In this document: positions 16,477 to 52,466 of the stretch, piece after piece | Position numbering within the stretch: position 1 is the first letter of the stretch | How the letters are laid out: each line of letters starts with the position of its first letter | Source: Candidatus Avelusimicrobium sp. | GTDB lineage: Bacteria; Elusimicrobiota; Elusimicrobia; Elusimicrobiales; Elusimicrobiaceae | Reading direction: 5' to 3' | Length of the DNA stretch: 64,000 bases | Assembly (NCBI RefSeq): GCF_051874775.1 | Contig: NZ_JBJEGE010000002.1 | Coordinates: 1,697-65,696, forward strand | Made by a program: the position numbers and the translations under genes | The notes under the pieces: generated by a model | The model's database searches: none | What the model was told of the DNA's origin: nothing | What the model saw: the letters and a program-made list of their open reading frames with translations, nothing else

Positions 16477-18150
16477 CTACTCCTCCAACACTTTTAAGTT
16501 GCGCAAGGCCGTTTTATTGGCGGGATCCGCTTCCACCGCGCGGCGATAGTAGTTCTGGGCCGCTTCGTCCTCCCCCGCCACTACGGCGGCCGTACCCAAA
16601 CCAAGCCAGCCGAGCGGATCCGCCGCCGATCGCACGGCTTCTTCAAAAGAATGTTGCGCCGCCGCAGCGTCCCCGCGCGCCAGGCCGGCAAGGCCCGTCA
16701 AAAGCGCGCAGATATTGCCGGCGGGACAGGAATAATCTTGTAATTCCTCCGCTGCGTCATCTACAAATTTAAGCCACGTTTTACCCATTACCCAAAGCCC
16801 CATATCGTTCCCCACAATGCGCGGATCGTACACGGCCTTAGGCGGAGCCCCGTCGTTTTGCGTCAGCGAGCGCGGCGACGCAAAATCCGCCGTGCGGCCC
16901 TGAAGCGACAAACTGACGTTATATTTCCCCTCTTCCCGCGCCACCGCCTGACGAACGCCGGAGATAAACTCCGCTATTTGGTTTTCGCGCGTTTGCACGT
17001 CGGCGGCGGGGAGCGTAAACCTCCGCTTAAACGCCCGCGGAACAACAGAAGCTCCGAATGCGTTATCGGCCCGCAGCCGTTCATACGCCCGTTCAAATGT
17101 GTTTTGGGCAGATAAATCCCCCTCGGAAACGGGCTCATATTCCAAAGACACTTCCACATTAACCGCTTTCGCCGCAGAGACATTAGACAAACTATTTTGA
17201 AATTTTTCAATTTGTTTTTCAAACGACTGCGCACTGCGTCCACTTGCGCGGTAAACCGCGTTTAATGCAAGCCCTTCCTGCTTAAAACGCGAAATGGAAA
17301 ACGCTTCCTCCAACGTCCGGCGCGCTTTATCTTCCTGCCCCTGCCGCACCAATAAAAAAGCGTAACGCAGGCGGGCCACATAATCGCCGGATTTGGTTTT
17401 TACGGCTTTTTTGTAGTATTTTAACGCGTCCTCCGTGCGGCCCAGTTTTTCGTACAAAGCCCCCAAACTAAGCTGTGCGTCCTCGTAAGACGGGAATAAT
17501 TTTAACGCTTTTTTAAATGAAGTTTCCGCCTGCCCGTCGCGCCCCAGAGCCTCGTAAAGCGTACCTAACTGGTAGTGATACAACGGCTCGCGCGGCGCGA
17601 GGTCCGCCGCACGGCGGAAATGCTCCAAGGCTTTATCCAAATGATTTTGTACGGCGTATGTGGAGCCTAAATTCATATGGGTATCGGCCTTGTTCGGATC
17701 CAATTTATTAGCGGTTAAAAAGTATTCCTGCGCCTGCGCAACATCGCCTTTCCAGCCGTACGCAATCCCCAATAACTGGTACGCCATAGCGGTATCGGGC
17801 GACAGGCGAAGGGCCTCGTTGTACTCCGTTATGGCTTCATCCACCTTGCCTTCCCAATACAAGGACGCGCCAAACAACAGGTGCGCCATAGGGTCTTTGG
17901 CGTTCTTAACTACAGCTTTGGCAAAACTGTTGGAAGCTTCCCGATAGCGCGCCTGAGCCATTTCGCCCATACCGCGGCGCATATCGGAGGCGGATTGGTC
18001 CCGCATAATTTGATCCCAAACGGTTTGGGAGTAATCGGTTTTGAGTTCCTGTTTACGGAAAGAAAACGGGAAAAACGCCCGCGCGGGCACGGGCCCCGCA
18101 ATCACCAGGACGGCACACAGCAAAAAGGAATTGATCCGTTTAACGAGCAT
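16477..18150 (-). CDS. Tetratricopeptide-repeat protein (exported)
   Basis: Signal-like N-terminus, followed by repeated A..Y..AL.l.P TPR units at both ends of the protein. Confidence 0.8.
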   Translation of the reverse strand: MLVKRINSFLLCAVLVIAGPVPARAFFPFSFRKQELKTDYSQTVWDQIMRDQSASDMRRGMGEMAQARYREASNSFAKAVVKNAKDPMAHLLFGASLYWEGKVDEAITEYNEALRLSPDTAMAYQLLGIAYGWKGDVAQAQEYFLTANKLDPNKADTHMNLGSTYAVQNHLDKALEHFRRAADLAPREPLYHYQLGTLYEALGRDGQAETSFKKALKLFPSYEDAQLSLGALYEKLGRTEDALKYYKKAVKTKSGDYVARLRYAFLLVRQGQEDKARRTLEEAFSISRFKQEGLALNAVYRASGRSAQSFEKQIEKFQNSLSNVSAAKAVNVEVSLEYEPVSEGDLSAQNTFERAYERLRADNAFGASVVPRAFKRRFTLPAADVQTRENQIAEFISGVRQAVAREEGKYNVSLSLQGRTADFASPRSLTQNDGAPPKAVYDPRIVGNDMGLWVMGKTWLKFVDDAAEELQDYSCPAGNICALLTGLAGLARGDAAAAQHSFEEAVRSAADPLGWLGLGTAAVVAGEDEAAQNYYRRAVEADPANKTALRNLKVLEE

Positions 18151-18254
18151 ACGTATATGATAGAAAAAAGGGAAGAACGGGGCAAATGAAAAAGGGGGTT
18201 AGGAAGGGATTATCCCGTAGGGGCGTAGTAGGAAATTCCGCTGTTATTAATTAA

Positions 18255-18286
18255 GTCATCCCCGAGTGATTTTGTCGGGATCTGAC
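18255..18286. repeat. Hairpin repeat family member
   Basis: GTCATCCCCGAG-TGATTTTG-TCGGGATCTGAC, imperfect stem, intergenic. Confidence 0.6.
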
Positions 18287-18292
18287 TCCGCT

Positions 18293-18331
18293 AAAAAAAG
18301 CATCCCCGAGAGGAAAACTCCTCTCGGGGAT
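18293..18331 (-). terminator. Rho-independent terminator after the 1260-aa gene; stem belongs to the same repeat family
   Basis: ATCCCCGAGAGG-N6-CCTCTCGGGGAT perfect 12-bp stem; on the minus strand it is followed by GCTTTTTTT. Confidence 0.9.
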
Positions 18332-18342
18332 AGATTGAGACT

Positions 18343-21300
18343 TTACGGCGCATACTTAGATTCTTCATACGCTTGGCCACACAGACCAGCACGGCCATTC
18401 TCAGGTTTCTCTCGGGCGCCCTCTTCACATAACACTTGAATATATTTTAACGCATCCGCTATACTCATTGTCTCTTGTCCATATTCACAAGACTCGTTGA
18501 TCTTCAACAGACTCTGATAGGCCTTATGATACTGTTGTCTGTTCACATCATCAATCGTCTTATTGGTGCTTCCATCTAACGTACCTGCTGCTACACGAGT
18601 AAACAGAGGCTGATCTCCCTTTTTAGCCAATGCCTGCAACGGAAAGTCCTTCCAGATGCCTTCCTTTAATACATTGATATAGGGATCTCTATCGAAACCA
18701 TTTAAATTCCGATCTCTATACTCCGCTTCATTCCAGTTATAAAGGCCATAGTGGTAGCCAGACATATCGGTGGTACCCTTATATTTGTAAACTTTTCCAC
18801 CTGCGCAACCGTAGAAACGATCATCTCTATATTTTGTCCCTTCAGACTCACTCTCCTTCCGATAGAAATTCGTAGGGTAGAACGAAGAGTCGTAGCCAAT
18901 AAAGGCCAAAAAGGAACCCAATGCATTTGTCCGTTTAGTAACCTGCGGATCTCTAGACTGACTGGCAATCGCCTTACCTACCGCACAAACCGTATCTTTC
19001 GGCACATTGTTTTTCCCTACGGCTTGCATAATGCGCATAGCATCTACCACTTGAGCCACCATCGCGCCATTCTCACCAATCTGTTGTGCATCATAGGCGT
19101 TCATTTCAGTCTCTTTTGCCTGACCATTATAACTATTAATAGCCTGTGTCAAGAAATCGACAGTGCTTTGATCCATATAAATCGTCGTGTTCGACATATC
19201 CCGAATCTCACACCTCTTCCACGGAGCACCTGCATTTTCGGAACTCGGATTAGAACGCGCCTGCTCCGACAAGACCTGATCCGGCATTTTAGTAAAGTCG
19301 GTATAGAAACTTACTTTAGTGCGCGGAGTCGGGGGAGTAGCACCCGTACAAGGGGGATCGTTCGGATTCGTCATAGATTTAACCCAGACGTTGTTACGGC
19401 ACGTTTGTTGCCAGTGGCAGCCTTTCGGATCATCCGGCAAATTTTGCACTGTTCCGTCTTTACATACACAGTCGGGGTTCGTTTTGGTCCATTCGGTCCA
19501 ATATCCATTCGGGCAAGTGCGCACTTCATCACAACCATTGTCGGGATTTTGTCTCGTTTCACGCGCTCCTTTATCGCAGTCTGTCCGGGGTTCCGGCTCA
19601 ATACTAACAACTTCGCCTTCGTCGCCGTACACACAGGTGGCAGACGATACTACAATACCGGGCAAGTCTTTAGCGTTCACGCCACCTGCCTTCTCATTCC
19701 AAGTTCGTCCGCAAGCGCCGTCGGCAATCGTTCTGCCGAAGCTCCACGGTGTTTCAGCATTCCAGCACTGGCGGATTTCCCACGTTACCGCGGCGGATTT
19801 GGTGGCATCACCCGCATCTCCCATAGCGTTGAGGACAGCTTGGGCACCTTTTCCGGAAGCCGCGATATTGTATTTGGCGGCAATTTCTCTGCCGCCGTTT
19901 TTCGCTAATACTTCTTCCGGAACATAATCTTGCGTATTGTCAATCGTCTGGACAAAGTAGCCTTTCGGAGCATCGTTGGCATTTAAACGGTTTTCCACTC
20001 TGTACGTTACGCGGAACATTTTCTGCACGTCCTTCGCTGACGCAGCTTTGGCTGCACTTTTACCCACATTGGGGAAGCTTAAAAACGCCGCCGGATTTCC
20101 CAACGTTTTCAGATCACCGAAATCTACGCCAGCCGTCGCCGTATCGTGGCAGGAAACAAATGCCAGAGGATACGCACAGCGCGCGCCCGTTTCCCAACTT
20201 TTGCCGCGTTTGCCGCCTTTCACGGACATTAATACAGAGCTCTCTTGGTTGACTGCATTTCCAACTCTTAACCCACCATCACTTAGTTTGTCCAAGAACT
20301 CCTTATATGTCAATTCGTGCGTATAACCGTTCTTATCAACTAAACCCGTCATCGGGTCGTAGTCTGCTATTTGTTTCCCGTCCCTGGATATGGCTGGATT
20401 AGGGGTCGGATTTACTGTACCATTGTCGTTTTTTACTTTTTTATTTTTTACCGCAACGCTTTCAATAAACAGCGGAATAAAAGCTTTTTGATTCATCAGC
20501 TGCCCTGTAGCCTCCGGATTGACGGAGAAAGTGGCACCCTTGCCTATATACCCGACATGCAGCAACTCGTAGCGGTCATTATCTGAACCCTTGACATATT
20601 CCTTCCAATCAGCGCTGCGTACACCCACAATATAATGGTACAGGGAATATTTGCCGCTGTACGAGGCGGTATAATGACCGTCTTTGTAGAAGGTATTGCA
20701 GTCGCCTAATTCCGCTAAACCTTCGGAGGCTTTACGCGCTTTGCGGGCGGCAAAAACGCCATTACTCAAACAATCTAAGCGTTGCGAAATAGGTCCTAAA
20801 GAAGTCTTATTCTTTTTAGCCTCAACCCATTTCGTAGTACACCCTACCTCAGGATGAGCAATTACCCAGCCTTTACAAGCGTTAGGATTAAATTCCACAT
20901 TGGGAGCGGCTCCTTTGAATTTTTCTTCGTTCATACCACAACATTCGGCACCACCACCCACACCCGCGGGCGCACCAAACATCTTGCCCATAGACCAGTC
21001 ATCGGTACCTGTAATCACACAGGACAATAAACCATCAGCCAGTTTTTGCGCAAGCCCTGTGGCGAAATCAATCCAACCCCATTTGTAGTTGAATTTTTTC
21101 TCCCATTCCATTTGGGAGCGTTGTTTCATCATATCCCACCACCAAGGCTCTTTACCGTTAAAGGCAAAGTTGCGCTCCAACTTACCGTTTCCGCCGCCAG
21201 GGCCGCCCATCTCTCCGCTAAGAATACCGCCAATTTTACCGGGTTCAATAGCTCTCATCTGCGCGTCCCGCAGGGCCTGCACCGCATTGGCTTTGGACAT

Positions 21301-22125
21301 AGCGTCTTTGGAGCGTCTGGCTTCTGCCGCCGCACCTTGACCAAAATACGATCGGGAAGGTTTGCCTACCGCCTGCAACGGTTGCAAGGAAACCGGCTTG
21401 GGGGAAGATTTAGGTGCATCCGCTTGCACTTTATTAGCGGCCTGCTTTAAACCGCCGCCCCACATTCCAACACCCAATTTTCCACCGCCACGAGAGGTTA
21501 ACCCCGCACTACGAAGCGGATTGATATTGGTTTTTTTAAAAGCGGCGCGCGTAGCGGGCGCGGCTTGTTTGCGATATCGGGTGATGTTCGTTTCGTTACG
21601 TTCGCTCGTCCGATTGCTGGAGCTGCCGTAATCATCATCAAAACCGCTTCTTTCCAAATCGCTTCTGTACGGAAGGTCGTCCGAAGTTTCTACCGGCTCG
21701 CCGCCAAAGCCCTTGATTAAAGACAGCGAATCACGGCCGGAAAGCTGCGCAATCTGGTTTTCGGGGTCGCCCGTCAGCGTATCAAAACCGGAACGGGTGG
21801 GATCAAACTCCGTTCCTTCCAAACCAGGGGTAACCATAGAAGGCTCTTCTCCTGCGCTGCCGGAGTATTTATACAAGAACGGCAACAACAAAAGAGCTGC
21901 AATGGCCGCAATAAAGAACGGCGCATCCCTTTTGGTTCTCTCAAAAAGAGTTTTTTTAGGTTTCCCGTCGCTCCCAATTTTGGAAGAAATACGGTTAGCG
22001 AAAGATTTCGAAGCGGCAGGTTTGCTGTTCTTGATCTTATCGCTAAAAGTAAAGCTGTCCTTTTTGCCCTCGTTTCCAACCGGAGCCAAAGGAACAACTT
22101 TTTTATCCTTTTTTTCTTCAGGCAT
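18343..22125 (-). CDS. Orphan large membrane-anchored, Cys-rich protein (1260 aa)
   Basis: AGGAGG RBS 5 nt upstream. Lys-rich N-terminus, one TM (PFFIAAIAALLLLPFLY), a Gly/Ser-rich linker, then a long Cys- and Trp-rich extracytoplasmic region. No family recognised. Confidence 0.75.
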   Translation of the reverse strand: MPEEKKDKKVVPLAPVGNEGKKDSFTFSDKIKNSKPAASKSFANRISSKIGSDGKPKKTLFERTKRDAPFFIAAIAALLLLPFLYKYSGSAGEEPSMVTPGLEGTEFDPTRSGFDTLTGDPENQIAQLSGRDSLSLIKGFGGEPVETSDDLPYRSDLERSGFDDDYGSSSNRTSERNETNITRYRKQAAPATRAAFKKTNINPLRSAGLTSRGGGKLGVGMWGGGLKQAANKVQADAPKSSPKPVSLQPLQAVGKPSRSYFGQGAAAEARRSKDAMSKANAVQALRDAQMRAIEPGKIGGILSGEMGGPGGGNGKLERNFAFNGKEPWWWDMMKQRSQMEWEKKFNYKWGWIDFATGLAQKLADGLLSCVITGTDDWSMGKMFGAPAGVGGGAECCGMNEEKFKGAAPNVEFNPNACKGWVIAHPEVGCTTKWVEAKKNKTSLGPISQRLDCLSNGVFAARKARKASEGLAELGDCNTFYKDGHYTASYSGKYSLYHYIVGVRSADWKEYVKGSDNDRYELLHVGYIGKGATFSVNPEATGQLMNQKAFIPLFIESVAVKNKKVKNDNGTVNPTPNPAISRDGKQIADYDPMTGLVDKNGYTHELTYKEFLDKLSDGGLRVGNAVNQESSVLMSVKGGKRGKSWETGARCAYPLAFVSCHDTATAGVDFGDLKTLGNPAAFLSFPNVGKSAAKAASAKDVQKMFRVTYRVENRLNANDAPKGYFVQTIDNTQDYVPEEVLAKNGGREIAAKYNIAASGKGAQAVLNAMGDAGDATKSAAVTWEIRQCWNAETPWSFGRTIADGACGRTWNEKAGGVNAKDLPGIVVSSATCVYGDEGEVVSIEPEPRTDCDKGARETRQNPDNGCDEVRTCPNGYWTEWTKTNPDCVCKDGTVQNLPDDPKGCHWQQTCRNNVWVKSMTNPNDPPCTGATPPTPRTKVSFYTDFTKMPDQVLSEQARSNPSSENAGAPWKRCEIRDMSNTTIYMDQSTVDFLTQAINSYNGQAKETEMNAYDAQQIGENGAMVAQVVDAMRIMQAVGKNNVPKDTVCAVGKAIASQSRDPQVTKRTNALGSFLAFIGYDSSFYPTNFYRKESESEGTKYRDDRFYGCAGGKVYKYKGTTDMSGYHYGLYNWNEAEYRDRNLNGFDRDPYINVLKEGIWKDFPLQALAKKGDQPLFTRVAAGTLDGSTNKTIDDVNRQQYHKAYQSLLKINESCEYGQETMSIADALKYIQVLCEEGAREKPENGRAGLCGQAYEESKYAP

Positions 22126-22147
22126 AAGAGCCTCCTGTTAATTTTTT

Positions 22148-22178
22148 AAAACTGCAAAAGTGAGGGTTGGCCCCTCAC
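22148..22178 (-). promoter_or_regulatory. Terminator-like hairpin inside the 5' leader of the 1260-aa gene (possible attenuator)
   Basis: Minus strand: GTGAGGG-GCCAA-CCCTCAC followed by TTTTGCAGTTTT. Located between the promoter at 22296-22323 and the RBS. Confidence 0.45.
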
Positions 22179-22295
22179 CGCCCGAGCAGACTTTTTACAA
22201 AGTCTCCCGTTTTATACTGTAACCATAATAAAAAGTCGTTGTTCGAAGATGGTCCCCCACTCCGTAACAACTTGAGCAAACATACCTCTATTCTT

Positions 22296-22323
22296 ATTAT
22301 ACAATTAAATTTCGTTTTTTCAA
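22296..22323 (-). promoter_or_regulatory. Strong sigma70-type promoter for the 1260-aa gene
   Basis: Minus strand: TTGAAA, 16 nt, TATAAT. Predicts a ~160-nt leader. Confidence 0.65.
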
Positions 22324-22346
22324 GGGGGAATTTTGCACTTTCTACG

Positions 22347-23876
22347 TTAATCCACATTCCCCACCCAAAACGTGCTGTCCTTCATATTAAGTTCGGAAAA
22401 GAAATCGCTAGCGTCAGGGTTTCTGGGCTTACCGTCTTCCGTACTGATGTTAAACGTTTCGCCCACCAATTCACCGATAGCATCTTGGGAAAAACCTTTC
22501 ACGTCTTCCGCTTTTATATTCTCTACTTTTTCACGACACGCGGCTTGCGCGGATGCGGTGGACAACGCATTACATTTGTTTTCTTCTTCCTTACAGTAGG
22601 ATGAAAAATCAGTAAACAAATCATCCAACTTATATGTGGTGCATTTACCTTCATTCATAGAAATACGGCACTTGCTTCCTAGATTTTTTCCATAGGACGT
22701 ATTTACTTGTTCACAAAGACTTCTGATTCCGTTCAAACGGTTAGGATATCCGCTCCCCGAAACAGCACCGCAAGTAGCGGGAAAAGAACCTTTAATTCCT
22801 TTAATTTGTTCGCGCGCTTGCTCTTTTAAACTACTCACTTTATCACCTACGTCCTGTATTGCCTGCTGACATTCTTTATCCAGTTCCAAATATTTTTGGA
22901 CACTTCCCATATCGGCCACCACGTCATCGGAGTTAATCCCCACGCCCGAAAAGCCCGACGCGGAAAATACGGACTTTGGCATTTCCATATTGTCAAAACT
23001 GGCGGATGCCAACGTTTTTTTCAAAATGAGATTAGGTGTACGACGAGCCGCCTTACCATACAGCCACGCGTGGTACATATCCCGATGGGCGCGGCTTTGG
23101 CCCAATTCCTGCACCCCGCCAAAACCGGTAAGAGTACCGCCTTTATCGATATTCTTGACGATATTAGCAAGGCCGGAATCCGAGCGGGTGGCTTTATCCA
23201 CCAAGCGGCCCATCCAATCATCAGAAACGGCTCCGGTGATATTCGGGTTAGCAATTTTTTTAAGCGCACCAACGGAATCATATCCGTGCGTTTTATCCCG
23301 CACGATGGCGGAAACGTCCGCCCCAAAAAACACCTCTCCAGTTTTAGCCGCATCAGCCCGCGTAGTGGCGGATACTGTTGTATTGCCGATTTTAATATCC
23401 GAAGGTCTTTGATCTTCCCCTGTATCCGCCGCAGAATAAGACACTTTCAGCGCGTCTTGCGCTTGGCCTTTGCGCGCGAGTGAATCATTAACGGCACGCA
23501 GATTAATCAGTTTATTTTGCGCAGGCGCAGAAAAAGAAGCCCAAAAGCCCCCGCCTTCGCCAAACACGGATACGGCATCCGGATCCGGCAGTTCCCCGCG
23601 CAAAATTTTTTGATGTTCATTCCACGAAAAAAGCGCCCGTAAGAGCGAAATTTTTTGGGTTTCATCCGGCGTATATCCCATTGCATACGCCAAATTGCGC
23701 AGGAACGGGATTTTGCCCACCGGCACAAATCCGCCGATAAACAGCAAAACTAAAAAGAACACAAGAACCACCCACGCTTTTTTGGATCGAAAAGCGCTTT
23801 TGGTTTCCTCCCACACGGCAGTGAAAAACGGTTGTTTTTCCTGCTGTTCATTTTTGGTTTCGTTTTGGTTTTGCAT
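22347..23876 (-). CDS. Orphan membrane-anchored protein (509 aa)
   Basis: Polar N-terminus, one TM (AWVVLVFFLVLLFIGGFVPV), and an extracytoplasmic domain whose C-terminal third is Cys-rich. No family recognised. Confidence 0.7.
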   Translation of the reverse strand: MQNQNETKNEQQEKQPFFTAVWEETKSAFRSKKAWVVLVFFLVLLFIGGFVPVGKIPFLRNLAYAMGYTPDETQKISLLRALFSWNEHQKILRGELPDPDAVSVFGEGGGFWASFSAPAQNKLINLRAVNDSLARKGQAQDALKVSYSAADTGEDQRPSDIKIGNTTVSATTRADAAKTGEVFFGADVSAIVRDKTHGYDSVGALKKIANPNITGAVSDDWMGRLVDKATRSDSGLANIVKNIDKGGTLTGFGGVQELGQSRAHRDMYHAWLYGKAARRTPNLILKKTLASASFDNMEMPKSVFSASGFSGVGINSDDVVADMGSVQKYLELDKECQQAIQDVGDKVSSLKEQAREQIKGIKGSFPATCGAVSGSGYPNRLNGIRSLCEQVNTSYGKNLGSKCRISMNEGKCTTYKLDDLFTDFSSYCKEEENKCNALSTASAQAACREKVENIKAEDVKGFSQDAIGELVGETFNISTEDGKPRNPDASDFFSELNMKDSTFWVGNVD

Positions 23877-23895
23877 AAGGGATTCGACAGAACTT

Positions 23896-23922
23896 GGAGG
23901 AGCCGCGCTAAACGGCTCCTCC
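23896..23922 (-). promoter_or_regulatory. Perfect 10-bp GC-rich hairpin in the intergenic spacer between two orphan genes
   Basis: GGAGGAGCCG-N7-CGGCTCCTCC with no T-run. The only SD-like sequence upstream of the 509-aa gene is sequestered in this stem. Confidence 0.4.
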
Positions 23923-23934
23923 TTACAAAATTAC

Positions 23935-25512
23935 TTATTTACTGGCAGCTTCACCTATAACCTGTTGCGCTACTTGACTAGCTCCGGCAACTCCAGCTAG
24001 TTTTAAGGCTTTTGTTGCCTGTAGTTGAAACTTAGCAATCTCAGTAGAGGAAAGAGCGCCTTGCATCGCCTTTATCCCTAAAGCTGTCAATCCAGCAATA
24101 GCCCCAACAGAAACAAGCAACGACAATATGGGCATAAACCCACCACCATACTTGGAAAGGTAACTAGAGGCAAAACCAAGCACGGTGGCCGCATAAGCTG
24201 CCGTTACCCCTATAGCGACCCAGCCCAAAGTCATATGTAACTTACCTTTAGCTATCTGTTGAAGACCCATCGCTTTCAGTCCCGAACAGTAAGGCATCTG
24301 GCTCATAGAAAGCAACAATTGGCCCTGCCATATTTCCAGACGGCCTTTAAAAATTAACCCACCGGCAAAGGACATTGTTACCAATGTAGCGGCAATTAAC
24401 GCAAGAGTCATCCACAGCAAACGCGTACGGGCTTTGCTTCTCTCCTTAGAGTTATCCTCTTGCTTTTGTCCCCAATCGCCAAGTGCTTTTAAGTTACGCG
24501 ATTCCGGCGCAGCAAAATCAGCCGAACCCGTGGTCGTCGTATCAGCCCCGCCGTCAATACTCATCCCTGCGCTGGTAGCGGTGTTGGCCAAAAAAGGACG
24601 GGCTCCCGCCACCGTGCCGCGGTTACGGTCTTTGGCGACATCGGCCGACATCTTAGAAATTTTCTTCAAATCATCTTTTTCGTTTACACGGCGGCCACTA
24701 CGTCCGAAATTAGCATTTCGTCCACCCGCCAAAAAGGTAGAACCGCTGCCCCGTCCACCCAACGAAGTCTCATAAGAGGAAACCACATTGGAACCACTAG
24801 GCATCGCACCGGAAAAATTGTAACCTTCCGAACCTGAGGCACGAGAAGAACCTGCGTTTCGTCCGCCTGAGGTACCGCCGGATACCATTCCACCCGTAGA
24901 ACCAAACGTCGCGTTAAAAGAATTTCCCGACGCACGGGCCATAGAGGCCGCAGCCAATCGTCCACCCGAATTGCTGCTGGAAGCGGAGGCCGCAGCAGGA
25001 GTAGCCGCCGATCCCTGCAGAACAGAAACGGAAGGAACTCCCGATGGAGAAGATCCCATAGTTCCTGTTTCCCCACCTGCAGGAATTTCCTTCAAATCCA
25101 CGCCGCCGGTACCTAAACCGTCCGAAGAGGAAATACGCGCGGCTGACCCGATACCGGAAGCGGAAAATTTAGCTTCCAAATTATCCGCAGCCGTCAAGCC
25201 GAAATCATTTTTAGACGTATATCCTTCCAATCGTTCGCGGTCGGCTCCCACGGCAACACCCTTTCCTCCTGCACGGTTTTGGATATTCATAGAGGTTAAC
25301 ATCCCGTCTGCTCGGCGGTTTAAACCATCATAAGCTGAGGATGAAGCCGCAACGGACGACAAAGCACGCAGTGGAATGTCGTTATCCAAAATTTGGTCGG
25401 TCTTAAAAGCTCCGTAAGTGGCCATCATACCCACCCCAGCAATAGTAAGCACTTGGGGCGCGCCTATAACAAGCTTGCCTGACTTGTTCTTTAAAAAATT
25501 CAGGATTTTCAT
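23935..25512 (-). CDS. Orphan polytopic membrane protein, Ser/Gly-rich (525 aa); paralog of 25810-27255
   Basis: AGGAG RBS. N-terminal TM, a ~300-aa S/G/A/N-rich low-complexity region, the conserved block SADVAKDRNRGTVAGARPFLANT, and 3-4 C-terminal TM helices. Confidence 0.75.
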   Translation of the reverse strand: MKILNFLKNKSGKLVIGAPQVLTIAGVGMMATYGAFKTDQILDNDIPLRALSSVAASSSAYDGLNRRADGMLTSMNIQNRAGGKGVAVGADRERLEGYTSKNDFGLTAADNLEAKFSASGIGSAARISSSDGLGTGGVDLKEIPAGGETGTMGSSPSGVPSVSVLQGSAATPAAASASSSNSGGRLAAASMARASGNSFNATFGSTGGMVSGGTSGGRNAGSSRASGSEGYNFSGAMPSGSNVVSSYETSLGGRGSGSTFLAGGRNANFGRSGRRVNEKDDLKKISKMSADVAKDRNRGTVAGARPFLANTATSAGMSIDGGADTTTTGSADFAAPESRNLKALGDWGQKQEDNSKERSKARTRLLWMTLALIAATLVTMSFAGGLIFKGRLEIWQGQLLLSMSQMPYCSGLKAMGLQQIAKGKLHMTLGWVAIGVTAAYAATVLGFASSYLSKYGGGFMPILSLLVSVGAIAGLTALGIKAMQGALSSTEIAKFQLQATKALKLAGVAGASQVAQQVIGEAASK

Positions 25513-25521
25513 AATACTCTC

Positions 25522-25794
25522 CTATTCTTTTACGCCGTCCACCGCATTCTTAACACGGTTCTGAGGCTGTTGCTGCCCCTCAAACGATTGGCGGTATCTG
25601 GCCGCACGGCGTGCACGCTCTTCTTTTAGCTGCTGCTCTTCCTGCAGGGCCTGAAAGCGGGCGTTTATCTGGCGGCCTTCAATAAAAATTGCCACTCCCC
25701 AACCGAGCCACAAGGCTATCAAGGCAAAAGCAATTATTCTAGGAATACAATTACGCTTATTCCAAGGTTCTATAATAATATTTCCTATTTGCAT
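25522..25794 (-). CDS. Small bitopic membrane protein with charged coiled-coil tail (90 aa)
   Basis: AGAGG RBS. TM segment IIAFALIALWLGWGVAIFI, then the Gln/Glu/Arg-rich tail QALQEEQQLKEERARRAARY. Confidence 0.6.
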   Translation of the reverse strand: MQIGNIIIEPWNKRNCIPRIIAFALIALWLGWGVAIFIEGRQINARFQALQEEQQLKEERARRAARYRQSFEGQQQPQNRVKNAVDGVKE

Positions 25795-25809
25795 ATTAAC
25801 CTCTATAAA

Positions 25810-27255
25810 CTATGCCGCTGCGGCCCCAAATCCTAAGAACTTCCCAACAGCCTTATAGGCAGATTTAAAAGCACTGGACCAGAAGAACGAAGCCCAAACG
25901 CCGCCAATTAACAGAGGAGTCACAATGTAAACAGCGGTTGTTATACCTTCACCGCCCCAAGTTTTTGCAAATTTGATAGCTTTTGCTAATGCAACGAGTA
26001 AAATGGCAGTTGCTGCAGCCGCCACAATTAGCGCAACTAGCGGCACGCCAAAAATTTTAATATGTTTCAAAGAAGGAATTGCAAGCATTGCCCCTATCGC
26101 CGTCAGAATAGAACTCCATAACCAAGTCTTTAAATTACTTCTGTCTTGGTCGCGTTTCATAGCATCACTATCAATACCTGCCCCCCAGCTCTTAATACCG
26201 CGCAGATTAGTGTCATAATCGCTCTCAAAATCTTTAGATCCCTGTCCCTGCCCCGTAGTCACGTTATCAGTAGAAATTATCATCCCACCAGAAACTTTAG
26301 TACTCGCTAAAAAGGCGCGAGCCCCTTCCACGGCAGAACGGTTTCTGTTTTTCGCGGCATCAGCGGAACGACGGCGAATAAACTCTAAATCATTAGCCTC
26401 TTTGGTGCTGCGGCCTTTTCTTACCGAAGCATTTCGGCTTTCGCCCAGACCATCGCTGCCAAAAGAAGCGCGTCCGCGAATGCGGGCCCCTTCCATCATC
26501 CCCGCCGCTTGCGCCCGGGCGGAAGCCATCACATCGCCGGCCTGTGCTAAAGCGTCCACCGACGAAATATTTTTACCCGCATTTTTGCCGCTGTCCTGCA
26601 CGGAAAAAGAGGAATTGAAAGAGTTGCCAGATGAGCCGCCGGTTGCGGAAGAAGAACCCCAATTTTTAGAAGCGCTGGCCAAAGCAGGCAGCCCTTTCTG
26701 AGCCTCCCCGCCAGACGCAGCCGCTTGAGATTGCTGTTGGGCTTGCTGCTGCGCTCTGGAAATCATATCCGTAACGCCCGCCATATTCTGCGTCATAGCG
26801 GCCATAGGGTTATTTTTTAAATCTAATTCATTGGCCATATTCGCCCCTGTGCCTAACCCTTCCGTTCCGCCCATTTGATAGGCTTGGGTAGGTGCAGCAG
26901 CCGCGGCGGAATAATCCGGAGCATATTCAGCCATTTCCACTTCAGCTTGACGCGCCATTTCTTGCTGTTCCAAGCGTTTAAATGTGTTGGTAGAAATCTG
27001 CACAGAGGATGAGGATTCCCCTCCCCCCGCATACGAACCGCCCGCGTAAGAGCCCGTATTCGCCCCCGCCACATACACCACTTCACCAGGGTTATAAACC
27101 GCCGGAGTAAATGTATTATTCGTTTCCGCGGGGGAACCTAAATACTGCCAAGCGGCAACACCCGCTACGCCAACGACAGCAGAGAGCCCTACCGTCTGCA
27201 TAGCGGAAAGAGCCATCTTTCCAGCCCTGCACCTTATCCATTTAAAGATATTCAT
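25810..27255 (-). CDS. Orphan polytopic membrane protein, Ser/Gly/Ala/Gln-rich (481 aa); paralog of 23935-25512
   Basis: AGGAGG RBS. Same architecture as its paralog; conserved block SADAAKNRNRSAVEGARAFLAST; C-terminal TM bundle. Confidence 0.75.
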   Translation of the reverse strand: MNIFKWIRCRAGKMALSAMQTVGLSAVVGVAGVAAWQYLGSPAETNNTFTPAVYNPGEVVYVAGANTGSYAGGSYAGGGESSSSVQISTNTFKRLEQQEMARQAEVEMAEYAPDYSAAAAAPTQAYQMGGTEGLGTGANMANELDLKNNPMAAMTQNMAGVTDMISRAQQQAQQQSQAAASGGEAQKGLPALASASKNWGSSSATGGSSGNSFNSSFSVQDSGKNAGKNISSVDALAQAGDVMASARAQAAGMMEGARIRGRASFGSDGLGESRNASVRKGRSTKEANDLEFIRRRSADAAKNRNRSAVEGARAFLASTKVSGGMIISTDNVTTGQGQGSKDFESDYDTNLRGIKSWGAGIDSDAMKRDQDRSNLKTWLWSSILTAIGAMLAIPSLKHIKIFGVPLVALIVAAAATAILLVALAKAIKFAKTWGGEGITTAVYIVTPLLIGGVWASFFWSSAFKSAYKAVGKFLGFGAAAA

Positions 27256-27273
27256 AAATTCCTCCTAAAATCC

Positions 27274-28779
27274 TTATTTTTTCCCCATACAACGATCAAA
27301 ACAAGCCGCCTGATCTTCATAACCTTGACACGCACTAATACACTCCGCACGGCTGGAAGTAGATTGTGAAGAAGTTGACTGAGAAGAACGGCTATTTCTC
27401 TTTACAGGGGCTGCAGTTACCCCACCGTTTGATCCCCCATTTACCGCTCCACTAAACGCCTGCGTGATTACGCTGCCTTGTGTGGCCCAAAAATTATTGT
27501 CATAGCTCTCTGCCCGTCGCTTAGTATACACCTCGTGTGCTTCCGGATACTGTTCCCAAGCTTTTTTAACATCACTCCGCCAATCTTTATAGGATGTGGG
27601 CGGTTCCATGCCGGAAGGGACAGAACCCCCGTTAGACGTCAAACTCGTATATTTTGCTGAACTCTCGCCATAAGCCAAATCATAGGCATCGCTAATTGTC
27701 ATTTGTTTCAAATCTTTCCCAGCTAAAGCCCCCCCGTCTTTGAACGCATCAGGAAACTTGTCCCGTAAATCTGCCTGAAACTTATCAGCGGACATCCCGT
27801 CAATAGCCTTATTTCCAGCGCGGTTTGCTTGCAAATTTGCCAAGCTGTCCATCGCATAATTAAGGCCGATCTGCACGCCGGCATTTAACAAGTTCTGCCC
27901 CAACTGTTCCCAAAAACTAGTTTCATTGTTCAAATTATTTAAGAAATTCTTTTTATCATCGCCCCCTTTATTGGCCGCATCTGAAACGGCTTGATCCAAA
28001 TTACTCAAATCCGCTGAAGAAACTGGAGCGTTGGTATCTAAATTCAGTCCGCTTGCCTTACTCATATCCACACCGGAATCAGTAAACGCTTCACTTCCTT
28101 TAATCCCACCACCCATCAATGCACGTTTAGCGTTGGCATTGCGGTTATCTTTAAGCCCCGCAGCCGCACGACTGGACCGCGCAAATTGCGAAAGTGCTTT
28201 CTGCGCATCCGCATTTTTTAATTGGTACTGGATTTCCGATCCTTTCTCTTGGCTTTTATAAGGAGAAAAATCCCCCCTGGGAGCGCCGAAAGTACTGCTC
28301 ACGCCGCTGCCACCCGCGCGGCCCATACTGGCCGAACCGAGCGACCCTACCTGCGTGGGCGATCCGCCGCCCGCACCGCCGCCACGGCCGGAATAGCCGC
28401 GGGAGGTATACCCCCCTGAAGAATACGCGGAATCCGAATCTGCGCTTTCCTCTGACGCCTCCTCCTCGGCATCCGCTTCTTGGCGTGCTTCCTTTTCTTC
28501 TTGGCTGTAAAGCATCGCGGCGCCGTTATTTTGCATATCCGGATACTTGGAAGCCAATAGATATTCTTCCGCTTCGTCATTTACAAAGGGCATCTGCGCC
28601 AAATCATACCCGCGGGTATTAAATCCGTCAAAAGAAGTATCTTCCGCATCTCCCAAAAAAGAAGCCAGCGTAATCAGCGCAATTATACAAACCACCACCA
28701 CAGCTCCCCACGTGTAAGCTTGTTTTTTGTCCATTGTATTTATTTTTTGAAATACATTGCCCGGCTTTAACTTAAACAT
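27274..28779 (-). CDS. Orphan membrane-anchored Ser/Gly-rich protein (501 aa)
   Basis: Start MFKLKPGN has an AAGGGG RBS; the track start at 28842 would lie ~20 nt from the predicted TSS. One TM (WGAVVVVCIIALITLASFLG), an acidic then G/S-rich region, and the C-terminal Cys motif AECISACQGYEDQAACFDRC. Confidence 0.7.
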   Translation of the reverse strand: MFKLKPGNVFQKINTMDKKQAYTWGAVVVVCIIALITLASFLGDAEDTSFDGFNTRGYDLAQMPFVNDEAEEYLLASKYPDMQNNGAAMLYSQEEKEARQEADAEEEASEESADSDSAYSSGGYTSRGYSGRGGGAGGGSPTQVGSLGSASMGRAGGSGVSSTFGAPRGDFSPYKSQEKGSEIQYQLKNADAQKALSQFARSSRAAAGLKDNRNANAKRALMGGGIKGSEAFTDSGVDMSKASGLNLDTNAPVSSADLSNLDQAVSDAANKGGDDKKNFLNNLNNETSFWEQLGQNLLNAGVQIGLNYAMDSLANLQANRAGNKAIDGMSADKFQADLRDKFPDAFKDGGALAGKDLKQMTISDAYDLAYGESSAKYTSLTSNGGSVPSGMEPPTSYKDWRSDVKKAWEQYPEAHEVYTKRRAESYDNNFWATQGSVITQAFSGAVNGGSNGGVTAAPVKRNSRSSQSTSSQSTSSRAECISACQGYEDQAACFDRCMGKK

Positions 28780-28868
28780 AAAAACCCCTTTACATAATAA
28801 TATAAATAACTCTCGTTGACCCATACCCGCAGGTATACTCAAACAAAGAGTTTTTAGCTTACTTCTTT

Positions 28869-28897
28869 AGTATAGGCAGAAAATACGCATTTGTCAA
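28869..28897 (-). promoter_or_regulatory. Near-consensus sigma70 promoter in front of the orphan five-gene operon
   Basis: Minus strand: TTGACA, 17 nt, TATACT. Confidence 0.7.
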
Positions 28898-28943
28898 GAC
28901 GTTTTAACCCAATTTACATCAAAACGCCAAAACCGCACACAGC

Positions 28944-29495
28944 CTATTTGTCTTCAGGACGCATATACGGCATCGGACGGTCGTTATGGCCCACATATTT
29001 AATAATATTCACTTCACCGCCAGTCTCACACAGAAAAGCATACCCCTTCAAACACTTATCGTCGATTTCGCACACCTTGTCTTTATTATACTTACACAAA
29101 AAAGGAATACGCGGCGGCTTCGTGCGCGCGGTAATGGTAATTTTTACCCACGTACCTGAAACATTGACATCCATCTTTAAGCTATTTAAGCTTAAAAATT
29201 TCTTTATACCCGGGTTATCAAAACCCAAATAATTTTCCACTTTTTTTTGAATATCTTTTATCAAAAAGCGCCTGTCCCACGTGTTTGCATAATAATCCGT
29301 TTGGTGGGATTGCAGCTGAAAACGACGGGCCGCATAGTATCCGGCAATTTCCAATTTTTGGTTTAAAATCAAAAGTCCAAAAATTTTGATAACAAACAGA
29401 ATGAAAATTACAAAAAGTGGAAACAGCAGTACGGTTTCTGTAGTCGCCTGTCCTTTTCGGGAGTAAAAAAAACACATTAATTTGTTCATCATCAT
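28944..29495 (-). CDS. TadE-like pseudopilin
   Basis: N-terminus MMMNKLMCFFYSRKGQATTETVLLFPLFVIFILFV matches the TadE/TadF pattern (G-x-x-x-x-E plus a hydrophobic helix). The ATGATGATGA start overlaps the upstream stop. Confidence 0.65.
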   Translation of the reverse strand: MMMNKLMCFFYSRKGQATTETVLLFPLFVIFILFVIKIFGLLILNQKLEIAGYYAARRFQLQSHQTDYYANTWDRRFLIKDIQKKVENYLGFDNPGIKKFLSLNSLKMDVNVSGTWVKITITARTKPPRIPFLCKYNKDKVCEIDDKCLKGYAFLCETGGEVNIIKYVGHNDRPMPYMRPEDK

Positions 29496-30595
29496 GGTTC
29501 CAGCTTGATACCGTATTTCGGTAACGGATGTGGCCATACGCAATTATTGTCCGAACGGGGGCAAATTAACTGCACGCGGGTACGGACATACGGTTTATAT
29601 TTTTGCTCTAAATTAATATTAAAATGGTTTCTGGGTAATTTAAAAGATTGTTTTAATAGAACGCCGCGCGATAAAGTGCGCAGTTTACCTAAGGAGGCCG
29701 GATTCAAATAGGCAAATTGATAGAGTCCCTCTCCATCTAAAAGCTCCCGAGCAGACAATTCTACAGGAAAGGCCCCTCCGTGGTGGTCTTCTTTAGTCGT
29801 GGCTTCCGAAAGGAAGAATTTTATTTTTTCCAATTCAAACGGAGTAGTAGACAAAGACATAAACTGCCGCAGTTGCGCCGCACTCTGACGCGCACACTCA
29901 GAACGCTTACAATCGTTGACATTTAAATAATATGCTTCGCGAAACATAACCGCATTTTTACTCAATTCTTGATAAACGTACGTTTGCGATTTATAAATAG
30001 ACCCAACACGAGCATACGTTGTCAAATAATTGACCAAAGCCGGTATGCCCACGCCTTCCCCTGGGAAATAATAGTTTTTGACCAAAGCCTGACTGACAAG
30101 GGGAACAACCTCGCTTGGAACCGCCGGCTTCTCTTTCATCCAATCTTTACGCGAAAGATTCGATAACTCCCCCTCATAATAGTTCACACCCCAATCCGTT
30201 GACTCCGCCGGAGGCGGATTATTAATACCCGTTTCATAATCCGGCCCAATAGAAGGTACTCCGCCGCCTTTATAAAAAATATCAAACACGCTGATTTGGG
30301 TACCATCGTGTTCTTTTTGGTTTAATTTCTGATTGGCTTCCTGCTTCATTACGCGGTACGGAAGCGGGCCGTTTACCATTGCTACCGCATTTAAATATGT
30401 ACTGGCGGAGGACATTTGGGAATACGCCGCGTTATCCAAAGCAAATTGCTGACGGATCTTGGTCATGGATACCTTGGCGGTTTCAAACAACAAATAGATT
30501 ACCAGCACGAAAATAGGCGCCAAAAGAACCGAAGGCAGCAAAATTTGCGCCTTACGGTCTTGTAATTTCCAAATACACCGGCGGAGTATTTTCAT
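29492..30595 (-). CDS. TadG-like / Flp-pilus-assembly protein with pilin-like N-terminal helix
   Basis: N-terminus ..DRKAQILLPSVLLAPIFVLVIYLLFETAKV.., 367 aa. Located right after an flp gene. The family assignment is tentative. Confidence 0.5.
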   Translation of the reverse strand: MKILRRCIWKLQDRKAQILLPSVLLAPIFVLVIYLLFETAKVSMTKIRQQFALDNAAYSQMSSASTYLNAVAMVNGPLPYRVMKQEANQKLNQKEHDGTQISVFDIFYKGGGVPSIGPDYETGINNPPPAESTDWGVNYYEGELSNLSRKDWMKEKPAVPSEVVPLVSQALVKNYYFPGEGVGIPALVNYLTTYARVGSIYKSQTYVYQELSKNAVMFREAYYLNVNDCKRSECARQSAAQLRQFMSLSTTPFELEKIKFFLSEATTKEDHHGGAFPVELSARELLDGEGLYQFAYLNPASLGKLRTLSRGVLLKQSFKLPRNHFNINLEQKYKPYVRTRVQLICPRSDNNCVWPHPLPKYGIKLEP

Positions 30596-30596
30596 A

Positions 30597-30773
30597 TCAG
30601 CTGGTCAACAACATTCCAATAAAGGAAAAGAAAAAACGCACAATATGCGTGTTAAACGCGGTTAAAAAGGCTGCCAGAACAACAACTATCGTCGCGAGCA
30701 TAAGCACATACTCGATAGTTGCCTGTCCTTTCTGTTGAACCAAAAACACTTTATGCGGCCTTTTTAAACACAT
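30597..30773 (-). CDS. flp: Flp-family type IVb pilin (58 aa; below the ORF-track cutoff)
   Basis: My hand translation: MCLKRPHKVFLVQQKG|QATIEYVLMLATIVVVLAAFLTAFNTHIVRFFFSFIGMLLTS. Contains the Flp motif G-xxxx-EY plus a hydrophobic helix. AGGA lies 10 nt upstream. Confidence 0.8.
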   Translation of the reverse strand: MCLKRPHKVFLVQQKGQATIEYVLMLATIVVVLAAFLTAFNTHIVRFFFSFIGMLLTS

Positions 30774-30785
30774 TGAAAATTATTC

Positions 30786-31469
30786 CTATTCTTCGTCGGA
30801 AATTACCGTCCCTTCCGACGAAATCAGCCCTTTTTCAATGGCTTTTACCACCGCTTCCGTACGGCTGGAAACACCCAATTTATGAAAAGCACTGTTCAAA
30901 TGGTTTTTAATCGTTTTGACGCTGCAATTAAGTTCTTTAGCAAGTTCTTTATTACTCAGCCCTTTACCCAAGTAGTCCATTACCTTAATTTCGGTTTTGG
31001 TCAGCGTGGCTTGGGTAGGCATTCCGCCGTCGCCCATTCTGCGAAGCCCGTGTAAGAGCTTACCCATTAATTGCTGCGGAATCATCAACCCTTCGGTTGT
31101 AAATGTTTTAATGGAATTAACGAGTTCCACCGCCGGAAGCATTTTGGACAAGTAACCATTGGCCCCCGCTTGAATGGCGTCCAGAACGTGGGCTTCGTCC
31201 TCAAAACTGGAAAGCATCAGCACATTGACTTCGGGGCAGGAGGAACGGATTTGGCGGGTGGCATTAATACCATCCATTTTGGGCAGCTTAATATCCATCA
31301 ACACTACGTCAGGCTTAAGCTTTTTGGCCTTGGCTACTGCCTCCAAGCCGTCAGCAGCTTCGCCAACGACTTCAATCCACTTTTCTCCGGTCAGTACGTC
31401 TTTAATCCCTTCCCGAAACAGCGTTTGGTCATCCGCAATCAGCACCGTCACTTTTTTCTTTTTATTCAT
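30786..31469 (-). CDS. NarL/LuxR-family response regulator
   Basis: Receiver VLIADDQTLFREGI..VVLMDIKLPKMDG. C-terminal HTH LTKTEIKVMDYLGKGLSNKELAKELNCSVKTIKNHL. GGGAG RBS for the ATG at 31469. Confidence 0.9.
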   Translation of the reverse strand: MNKKKKVTVLIADDQTLFREGIKDVLTGEKWIEVVGEAADGLEAVAKAKKLKPDVVLMDIKLPKMDGINATRQIRSSCPEVNVLMLSSFEDEAHVLDAIQAGANGYLSKMLPAVELVNSIKTFTTEGLMIPQQLMGKLLHGLRRMGDGGMPTQATLTKTEIKVMDYLGKGLSNKELAKELNCSVKTIKNHLNSAFHKLGVSSRTEAVVKAIEKGLISSEGTVISDEE

Positions 31470-31498
31470 TGAGTATACTCCCATAACGTTGTTAAATC

Positions 31499-47105: not shown

Positions 47106-47124
47106 AAATTGGCTTCTCTGTTTT

Positions 47125-47154
47125 ATTATACGGCTTTCTACAAATATTCGGCAA
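47125..47154 (-). promoter_or_regulatory. Sigma70-type promoter for the OMP-flp-tad operon
   Basis: Minus strand: TTGCCG, 18 nt, TATAAT, ~20 nt upstream of the OMP start. Confidence 0.55.
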
Positions 47155-47301
47155 AACTTCACTCTGTTTACTTCCAGCACAGCAAATGGGATTCTTGCGC
47201 TAAGACTGTCTTCTCTTCCGAATTTTACACAAACATACGGGAAAAATTCCCGCATACCTGCGTCTTTCAATGTCCAGCGTACTCCGAGTCCATCTTAATA
47301 T

Positions 47302-52392: not shown

Positions 52393-52466
52393 TGTATATG
52401 TATCCATTTGGGGAATATGTCCCGTCGTAAAATTAAGTTTTACAAAGCTGTGGCGCACCTAAAAAC

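Follow-up and report, generated by a model that had tools for sequence, protein, structure and literature searches.

What are the six consecutive genes that follow the Tad/Flp pilus locus of Candidatus Avelusimicrobium sp., and do they belong to the pilus machine? The question arises from a stretch of 64,000 nucleotides (nt) of contig NZ_JBJEGE010000002.1, called here the window. A first-pass annotation had described six orphan genes on its minus strand (g1 to g6 in the order of transcription, Table 1) as one module, and had suggested an envelope assembly tied functionally to the Flp pilus. Elusimicrobia are common gut bacteria, and to our knowledge there is almost no experimental cell biology on them. 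The best explanation of the region is that it is an autonomous envelope module specific to the Elusimicrobia and not an integral part of the Tad system. The unit consists of a promoter and leader followed by g1 to g5, a second promoter and leader followed by g6, and a terminator; g6 is the old core, and g1 to g5 are accessory genes expanded by duplication. All six genes are present and real, but they do not make up one operon: g6 forms a transcription unit to itself, with a separate promoter and leader, and also occurs alone.

Gene order, distribution and autonomy

When one genome per species was scanned, 75 loci were recovered, all of them in Elusimicrobia except for a few evidently mislabelled bins; no record of Elusimicrobium minutum was among the results. 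The named members of the g1–g6 families come from Elusimicrobia only. Full modules are also present in bins labelled Spirochaetes, Muribaculaceae, Duodenibacillus and Eggerthellaceae (L009, L018, L075 and L079), labels that are most likely binning or labelling errors in the public records. With orthologues in at least 75 species of Elusimicrobia and a ratio of nonsynonymous to synonymous substitution rates (dN/dS) of 0.10–0.44 for all six genes against three relatives, with dS near saturation, g1–g6 are genuine genes under purifying selection. The neighbouring tadE and tadG-like genes evolve more slowly, with dN/dS values of 0.06–0.18.

Searches with the window proteins (tblastn) recovered the order response regulator–flp–tadG-like–tadE–g1–g2–(g3)–g4–g5–g6 wherever the upstream DNA suffices, and the tadE and tadG-like genes stand directly before g1 in 51 of the loci with enough upstream DNA. 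The same order, together with the downstream TPR protein gene and ksgA, surrounds a g6 relative of 28% identity (L080) and the most distant g5 relatives (L086 and L087), and is found in L085. The position that the first-pass annotation gave for the six genes, on the same strand right after flp, tadG-like and tadE, is thus kept from close to very distant relatives. At four loci (L035, L054, L069 and L071), g1–g6 stay together and have unrelated, non-Tad genes upstream. The gene g6 is found alone in at least five distant loci (L073, L076, L077, L083 and L084), and its neighbours could be read in three of them. In L076, from a termite-gut member of the Elusimicrobia, the lone g6 follows genes matching DAHP_synth_1, SIS plus CBS, LptC and LptA/LptD_N, which can be read as kdsA, kdsD, lptC and lptA, while it adjoins rpsB in L083 and rplM-rpsI in L084. 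The distribution of g6 is wider than that of g1–g5.

These arrangements bear directly on the idea that g1–g6 form a dedicated Tad accessory complex, that is, a lineage-specific alignment or anchoring sub-complex of the Flp machine that has no role without it and replaces connectors from PilMNOP, TadG or RcpB. The retention of g1 behind flp, tadG-like and tadE, in L080 and L085–L087 as well, the presence of the pilin gene within the same distal block and the short Tad secretin described below all agree with it. However, the module stands away from Tad in four species, g6 and its leader can reside alone beside housekeeping genes, the module has a promoter and leader of its own, and none of its proteins has a pilin-type signal or a match to a Tad family. 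Furthermore, the downstream genes TPR-ksgA-FTCD are as syntenic as the Tad side, which means that the whole region is conserved in order. Tad adjacency is therefore weak evidence of a functional tie and could reflect general conservation of gene order in the region. A dedicated Tad complex appears unlikely. What stands of the proposed pilus-tied envelope assembly is that the proteins are membrane-anchored and Tad-adjacent; the tie itself is loosened by the detached modules and the lone g6 genes.

The neighbours of lone g6 invite the opposite explanation, namely that the module has a housekeeping role in the envelope unrelated to the pilus, such as cell-wall growth or division, outer-membrane tethering or the traffic of lipids or lipopolysaccharide, with g6 as the essential player and the Tad adjacency as a historical accident. 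The location beside kdsA-kdsD-lptC-lptA, rpsB or rplM-rpsI, the nearly invariant cytoplasmic tail and transmembrane (TM) helix of g6 and the OmpA domain of some g6 orthologues would all suit such a role. Against this, g1–g5 are apart from the flp-tadE block in four species only, and the g6 ectodomain varies more than would be expected of a typical core housekeeping protein. Comparison with the known division, Tol-Pal, Lpt and AsmA-like families gave no similarity for g1–g6 in Pfam and NCBIfam, or for g6 in the PDB profile and Foldseek searches. This explanation, too, is improbable.

Promoters and leader RNAs

Both transcription units open with a promoter-like site that agrees with the consensus at 11 of 12 positions. 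The pattern of the first, CTTGACAA-17-TATACT, is present in 49 of 49 orthologous intergenic regions upstream of g1, among them regions from loci in which the module is away from Tad. The pattern of the second occurs in 45 of 63 orthologous regions and is conserved in an alignment of 41 leaders. Taken as a whole, the promoter scan was not above chance (19 sites against 16.4 expected). The two promoters had been noted in the first-pass annotation, as had the strong terminator behind g6, and all three were found. The Shine-Dalgarno sites that it had reported are visible as Shine-Dalgarno-like sequences 5' of g1, g2, g3, g4 and g6, and none is visible 5' of g5. From g1 to g6 the intergenic gaps are 18, 15, 9, 58 and 221 nt.

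Between the first promoter and g1 lies a hairpin, R2, whose basal stem and internal loops are conserved, whose apical stem covaries freely and which is followed by a U-run. In an alignment of 29 sequences, 96% of the cells of its 18 pairs are paired, nine pairs are compensatory and none of 500 shuffled alignments reaches its score, while slid controls are 37–49% paired. Covariation reaches deep, as the basal stem changes from ACUCU/AGAGU to GCUCC/GGAGC in distant lineages. A covariance model of R2 has exactly one match per locus in 1.6 Mb of loci. Wherever there is a module, the match lies directly 5' of g1, and this holds for the four loci detached from Tad and for the distant L080 and L085–L087 as well. 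In L073, L076 and L077, where g6 is alone, it lies directly 5' of g6. The promoter and leader are therefore parts of the module that accompany g1 or g6 and not tadE. The hairpin also helps to fix the start of g1: an alternative TTG at 28842 would fall inside this conserved structure and the orthologues start with MFKLKPGNVF, so that the ATG at 28779 is taken as the start.

The second leader hairpin, R1, precedes g6 and is likewise supported by covariation (13 pairs, 99.7% of cells paired, six compensatory pairs and none of 500 shuffles reaching the score). Its model has matches only in the window and in close relatives, each time upstream of g6. More hairpins lie 3' of R1, followed by a GC hairpin with GCAGTTTTATTTT that stands just ahead of the Shine-Dalgarno site of g6. 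Conservation of the segment GCAGTTTTATTTT..AGGAGGC at this position extends to loci in which g6 is alone. An Rfam 15 scan of positions 17500–31500 matched neither leader hairpin and returned only a chance glmS match elsewhere (E 0.74). No regulon was found for the two RNAs, each of which occurs once in the window and only before g6 or g1 in the 1.6 Mb of loci. A metagenome scan with the R2 core pattern gave mostly chance matches; the covariance model accepted only two of the 80 loci, of which the readable one (L124) was the same module.

Both leaders resemble terminator-type 5' leaders, such as attenuators, riboswitch platforms and antitermination leaders, in having a promoter-proximal hairpin and U-run before the Shine-Dalgarno site and strong covariation. 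They differ from these in that they have no Rfam match, no obvious aptamer and no alternative antiterminator pairing, and in that sequence conservation extends to the basal stem and the internal loops. The conservation of these parts of R2 suggests a bound factor, and the hairpin with its U-run probably sets or gates read-through by attenuation.

The core protein g6

The 1260-residue g6 protein consists of a conserved cytoplasmic tail of 66 residues, a TM helix (RDAPFFIAA..LLLLPFLYKYSG), a conserved periplasmic segment extending to about residue 400 (EPWWWDMMK) and variable Cys-rich domains. The tail, the TM helix and the periplasmic stretch of simple composition up to EPWWWDMMK hardly vary among 31 homologues, which argues for specific contacts made by these parts rather than for a passive anchor or linker. 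A conserved Asp stands at the cytoplasmic edge of the TM helix (RDAPFF). Beyond residue 400 the protein is mostly highly variable, and 12 of its 26 Cys residues are invariant in the same 31 homologues. A phmmer search with residues 61–1260 against 1.84 billion representatives returned 148 proteins, nearly all of 1100–1640 residues, which share only the first ~340 residues of the query (~61–400 of the full-length protein). There are hundreds of g6 homologues of about 1250–1320 residues, none of them with a Pfam domain, and the named ones come from metagenome-assembled genomes of Elusimicrobia or Elusimicrobiaceae.

The AlphaFold2 model of g6 has a confident C-terminal domain at approximately residues 940–1250 of the full-length protein. 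Proteins that match this domain alone mostly look like gene fragments. Pfam searches with sixteen distant g6 relatives had OmpA in two as their sole result. The distant orthologue P0338 ends in an OmpA domain (PF00691) at 29.0 bits, above the cut-off of 27.2, and P0340 has a C-terminal OmpA-family domain at 21.7 bits against the same cut-off. P0338 is encoded in the same gene order as in the window, and its neighbours match the g1, g2 and g5 profiles with E values of 4e-26, 1e-12 and 1.5e-8. The domain places the C-terminus of the g6 family in the periplasm and equips it for peptidoglycan binding in these lineages; as it is absent from the g6 of the window, it is a lineage-specific addition rather than a feature of the family.

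The accessory proteins g1 to g5

By hydropathy, all six proteins have a single hydrophobic segment at the N-terminus, to which g2 and g4 add three close to the C-terminus. The N-terminal segments follow cytoplasmic tails of 22–66 residues and look like uncleaved anchors. Ahead of the first TM segment, Lys and Arg are more frequent than behind it in g1 (3.9 before and 1.0 after), g5 and g2/g4, so that the signals point to an N-in orientation with the bulk of g1–g6 outside the cytoplasm. The composition is rich in Ala, Ser and Gly. Most of the protein features listed in the first-pass annotation thus hold: a short N-terminus followed by one TM helix, a mostly extracytoplasmic location, low-complexity composition, a C-terminal membrane bundle in two members (g2 and g4) and Cys-rich regions in three, namely g1, g5 and g6.

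The proteins g2 and g4 are paralogous over their full length (BLASTP 8e-21; hhalign probability 100%, E 3e-52). Each has an N-terminal TM segment, a loop of about 340 residues rich in Ala, Gly and Ser with short conserved motifs, and three C-terminal TM segments, four being the commonest TM count in the family. The signals point to a topology with both termini inside and the long loop in the periplasm. A pilin-like leader in g2/g4 (G-K-x-x-L-S-x-x-Q) was considered and dropped, being without the G-x4-E signature. The g1 protein is a distant paralogue of the pair, as judged from a profile-profile comparison with g4 (E 3.3e-8, against 0.04 for the reversed-profile control) centred on the motif L-x-SASM-x-RASG. 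The short basic motif AKNRNR..GAR.FLA, which had been thought to recur in at least three members, is solid in g2 and g4 and weak in g1 (E 0.0012 for g1 against g2, 0.02 for the reversed control). Profile comparisons of g5 with g6 and of g4 with g6 found no relationship, and g5 and g6 are unrelated to the other members. As a result, the 'shared design' of the six proteins turns out to be largely the paralogy of g1, g2 and g4 and not a convergence of six independent proteins. Since the deeply diverged L080 and L085 have a single g2/g4 gene, the ancestral set comprises five genes: g1, g2/g4, g3, g5 and g6.

The g1 protein is a single-pass, N-in anchor with conserved residues 1–270, a hypervariable C-terminal half and a tail of the type CxxxC..CxxxC (four Cys in the last 22 residues). 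The g3 protein has one TM segment and a charged helical tail, and a small TM protein occupies its position in distant loci (70 residues in L080, 86–90 in L086/L087). The g5 protein consists of an N-in anchor, a conserved membrane-proximal region and a C-terminal helical bundle, modelled by AlphaFold as a confident, Cys-stapled bundle at residues 316–500. Of its eight Cys residues, six are invariant; together with the 12 invariant Cys of g6, they fit periplasmic disulfides. The 84 clusters of g5 homologues are all unnamed or 'hypothetical' proteins from Elusimicrobiaceae.

The similarity of the module to its relatives is a mosaic. While g6 is 77% identical to its counterpart in L005 and 51% to that in L007, the trend is the opposite for g3 (40 and 79%) and g4 (51 and 69%), and dS against L005 is 0.35 for g6 and 0.74–1.24 for g1–g5. 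The pattern suggests interspecies recombination within the module. Mosaicism of this kind has also to be considered together with the possibility that the g6 and g1 ectodomains are displayed at the surface or released, perhaps with the aid of the pilus, as adhesins or matrix proteins carried on stalks rich in Ala, Gly, Ser and Asn. Such a function would account for low-complexity composition, for the variability of g6 beyond residue 400 and for the hypervariable C-terminal half of g1, in which column identity is 0.10–0.27 against 0.5–0.8 in the N-terminal half. Nevertheless, the N-terminal segments behind the 22–66 residue tails do not look like signal peptides, no outer-membrane targeting or sorting signal is present, g2 and g4 are polytopic membrane proteins, and the OmpA domain of distant g6 orthologues puts the C-terminus in the periplasm. 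Secreted or surface adhesins are quite improbable.

Relationship to known families

No member of the module could be assigned to a family. Searches of Pfam and NCBIfam with g1–g6 gave no match with E < 0.03 and none near any curated cut-off, and searches of PADLOC (anti-phage defence) and PHROGs (phage proteins) found nothing below E 0.05. No Pfam match was obtained with ten distant orthologues of g1, g2/g4, g3 and g5. When family alignments of g6, g5, g4 and g1 served as profiles against the PDB sequences, no match was significant; a match to the AopB translocator (E 0.48) was dismissed as TM composition. Foldseek was run with the AlphaFold models of g6 (residues 321–1260) and g5 at a match threshold of E ≤ 0.001. 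The best E values for g6 were 0.11 in the PDB and 0.23 in BFVD, and the best PDB value for g5 was 0.19, to generic helical bundles.

The Tad families themselves gave the same result. Whereas the neighbouring TadE-like and Flp open reading frames (ORFs) have the G-x4-E motif, it is absent from the N-termini of g1–g6, which show neither a class III signal (G-x4-E/Y) nor a match to PF07811 (TadE) or Flp. The named assembly families of the Tad, type II secretion and type IV pilus systems (TadG, T2SSE, T2SSF, secretin, RcpC, PilN/O, GspL/M) do not match g1–g6 up to E = 1, although neighbouring genes do match these models. The first-pass annotation had placed the proteins in no known family and had seen no pilin signature; it is borne out on both counts, and neither the profile nor the Foldseek searches yielded a confident family match. 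Literature searches found no description of the g1–g6 genes in the library that they covered. Since comparisons with known families, folds and stators were all negative and no description was found, the g1–g6 proteins and the leader RNA are rated as new kinds and not as variants of known ones.

Proposed function

The function suggested for the module, tentatively and as a possibility only, is an inner-membrane-anchored, periplasm-facing scaffold that is built around g6 and connected to the cell wall. The ancient bitopic g6 would be its core, with the conserved tail, TM helix and membrane-proximal segment carrying a large, variable, disulfide-rich periplasmic ectodomain that in some lineages ends in an OmpA-type peptidoglycan-binding domain. 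The g1–g5 proteins, ancestrally g1, one g2/g4, g3 and g5, would be inner-membrane partners exposing long, flexible periplasmic segments rich in Ala, Gly and Ser with short conserved motifs. Together, the six proteins may fill the periplasm as a scaffold that ties the membrane to the cell wall and that, in Elusimicrobiaceae, may brace or position the neighbouring Tad machine. Expression would be driven by the module's own strong promoter and then gated by the leader hairpin and U-run through attenuation of read-through. We infer the formation of a complex, the scaffold or cell-wall tether role, the leader attenuation and any link to the pilus.

Coupling to Tad in Elusimicrobiaceae, not obligatory, is plausible given that the Tad secretin has only 248 residues. 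This is unusually small for a secretin of the RcpA/CpaC type; no N-terminal periplasmic domain was detected in it, and the short protein may leave room for extra periplasmic connectors. A bolder version of the scaffold would be a phylum-specific, trans-envelope apparatus in which entirely new protein families surround a giant, peptidoglycan-bound protein of the inner membrane. It would link the inner membrane mechanically to the Tad pilus or, in general, to the cell wall, and a new class of leader RNA would switch it on. This version is rather doubtful.

Comparison with known systems shows where the scaffold would be similar and where it would be novel. The Tad/Flp accessories TadG, TadD, RcpB and RcpC share with g1–g6 the distal position in the tad locus after the pilin or pseudopilin genes, and are also membrane-anchored, non-enzymatic and poorly conserved between phyla. 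In contrast to them, g1–g6 match no Tad profile and lack a class III signal peptide, and the module, which has a promoter and leader to itself, may be found away from the tad locus, without which g6 also exists. MotB/PomB, TagL of type VI secretion, GspA/ExeA and FimV/TsaP, inner-membrane proteins that anchor trans-envelope machines to peptidoglycan, resemble g6 in architecture, which is bitopic and N-in with a short tail, one TM helix and a long periplasmic part; the C-terminal OmpA-type domain of P0338 and P0340 and the conserved Asp at the TM edge add to the likeness. The g6 proteins differ in their size of 1200–1600 residues, in their unique conserved N-terminal 400 residues and, in the window, in the lack of OmpA; a MotA/ExbB-like partner could not be detected, and conservation of the g2/g4 TM bundle is low. 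An ion-driven 5:2 stator of the MotAB, ExbBD, TolQR or GldLM type was rejected, there being no profile matches and a column identity of just 0.07–0.38 in the TM regions of g2/g4, and the conserved Asp is only suggestive as a hint of a stator. With TolA, TonB and FtsN, which are bitopic and have low-complexity periplasmic linkers, the g1, g5 and g6 proteins have in common an N-terminal anchor, a long periplasmic stretch of biased composition and a C-terminal domain. They show no homology to these, and the 'linkers' of g2, g4 and g6 hold nearly invariant short motifs, unlike simple spacers.

Several points weigh against a cell-wall-linked scaffold. The interaction of the six proteins and their place in the cell are presumed, and the topology is taken from hydropathy and charge counts alone. 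The g6 of the window has no OmpA domain according to Pfam, and its C-terminal domain matches no known fold in Foldseek searches of the PDB and BFVD. A similarity of fold may have been missed, as the AlphaFold models of g6 (residues 321–1260) and g5 are mediocre, with mean pLDDT confidence scores of 68.8 and 61.2. The low conservation of the g2/g4 TM regions makes the role of the membrane bundle uncertain, and the hypervariable, mosaic C-terminal parts of g1 and g6 suit surface exposure better than a buried scaffold. Finally, the leader hairpin with its U-run might act not as an attenuator but as a stem-loop that stabilises the 5' end.

Envelope gene clusters that are confined to one lineage and have no known role are not uncommon. 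What Elusimicrobia gain here is a defined and testable unit: five or six conserved envelope proteins without relatives elsewhere, a core protein, g6, that deep lineages of the phylum have retained, a clear pattern in where the unit adjoins Tad and where it does not, and two covarying leader RNAs outside Rfam. If the cell-wall-linked scaffold is true, it would be a new solution to the anchoring or spacing of the envelope and might also reveal how so short a secretin allows a minimal Tad machine to cross the periplasm. The leader hairpin, with target genes that are already identified, makes a clean candidate for a new cis-regulatory RNA. Should the function turn out to be modest, the N-terminal region of g6 and the R2 motif would still be useful lineage markers.

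Coordinates and neighbouring genes

Table 1. Features of the module and of the adjoining Tad locus (positions in the window)
Feature	Position	Strand	Description
g1	27274-28779	-	501-residue ORF
g2	25810-27255	-	481-residue ORF
g3	25522-25794	-	90-residue ORF
g4	23935-25512	-	525-residue ORF
g5	22347-23876	-	509-residue ORF
g6	18343-22125	-	1260-residue ORF
g1–g5 promoter-like site	28869..28897	-	TTGACA-17-TATACT, 11/12 consensus
R2, g1 leader hairpin, then U-run	28795..28855	-	candidate new cis-regulatory RNA/attenuator
g6 promoter-like site	22296..22323	-	TTGAAA-16-TATAAT, 11/12 consensus
R1, g6 leader hairpin, then U-rich tract	22225..22276	-	covariance-supported
GC-rich terminator-like hairpin, then TTTTGCAGTTTT	22160..22179	-	read from sequence; just 5' of g6 Shine-Dalgarno site
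Intrinsic terminator after g6	18301..18332	-	14-bp stem, 8 GC pairs, then CTTTTTTT
Flp-type pilin ORF, unlisted	30597-30773	-	58 residues, ..QKGQ/ATIEYVLML..; between LuxR-type response regulator and tadG-like gene
Tad secretin	43642-44388	-	248 residues; Secretin domain at residues 87-248
TadZ-TadA-like fusion	41112-43634	-	840 residues; ParA/MinD-like (CbiA/AAA_31) N-terminal part and T2SSE ATPase

The same-strand genes upstream of the module match profiles of a complete Tad/Flp locus. In the order of transcription, from high to low coordinates, it starts with genes for a TadE-like protein, RcpC, the secretin, the 840-residue protein, which looks like a TadZ-TadA fusion, TadB and TadC. These are followed by genes for a TPR protein, a HAMP protein, a Cache-HAMP histidine kinase, a hybrid kinase and a LuxR-type response regulator. 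The distal end consists of the Flp pilin ORF, a TadG-like ORF of 367 residues and a second TadE-like ORF, after which g1 begins. The equivalent of the Flp ORF is called in related loci, with 58 residues in L001 and 54 in L080. Downstream of g6 are the genes for a TPR protein, KsgA and formiminotransferase (FTCD).

The first-pass annotation had also pointed to a DsbA-like protein of the tad operon as a fitting partner for Cys-rich periplasmic proteins. The protein meant is probably a lipoprotein-like ORF of 312 residues at 34712–35650 on the minus strand, which has CPYG instead of CxxC and no Pfam match, leaving the DsbA argument without support from these tools. At the head of the tad region, a protein of 1707 residues (47335–52458, minus strand) has FlgD_ig matches and weak matches to CHU_C, a C-terminal signal of type IX secretion. 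It is adjoined by an ORF of 380 residues without a Pfam match (46128–47270, minus strand), and L071 carries a similar pair of 1729 and 325 residues.

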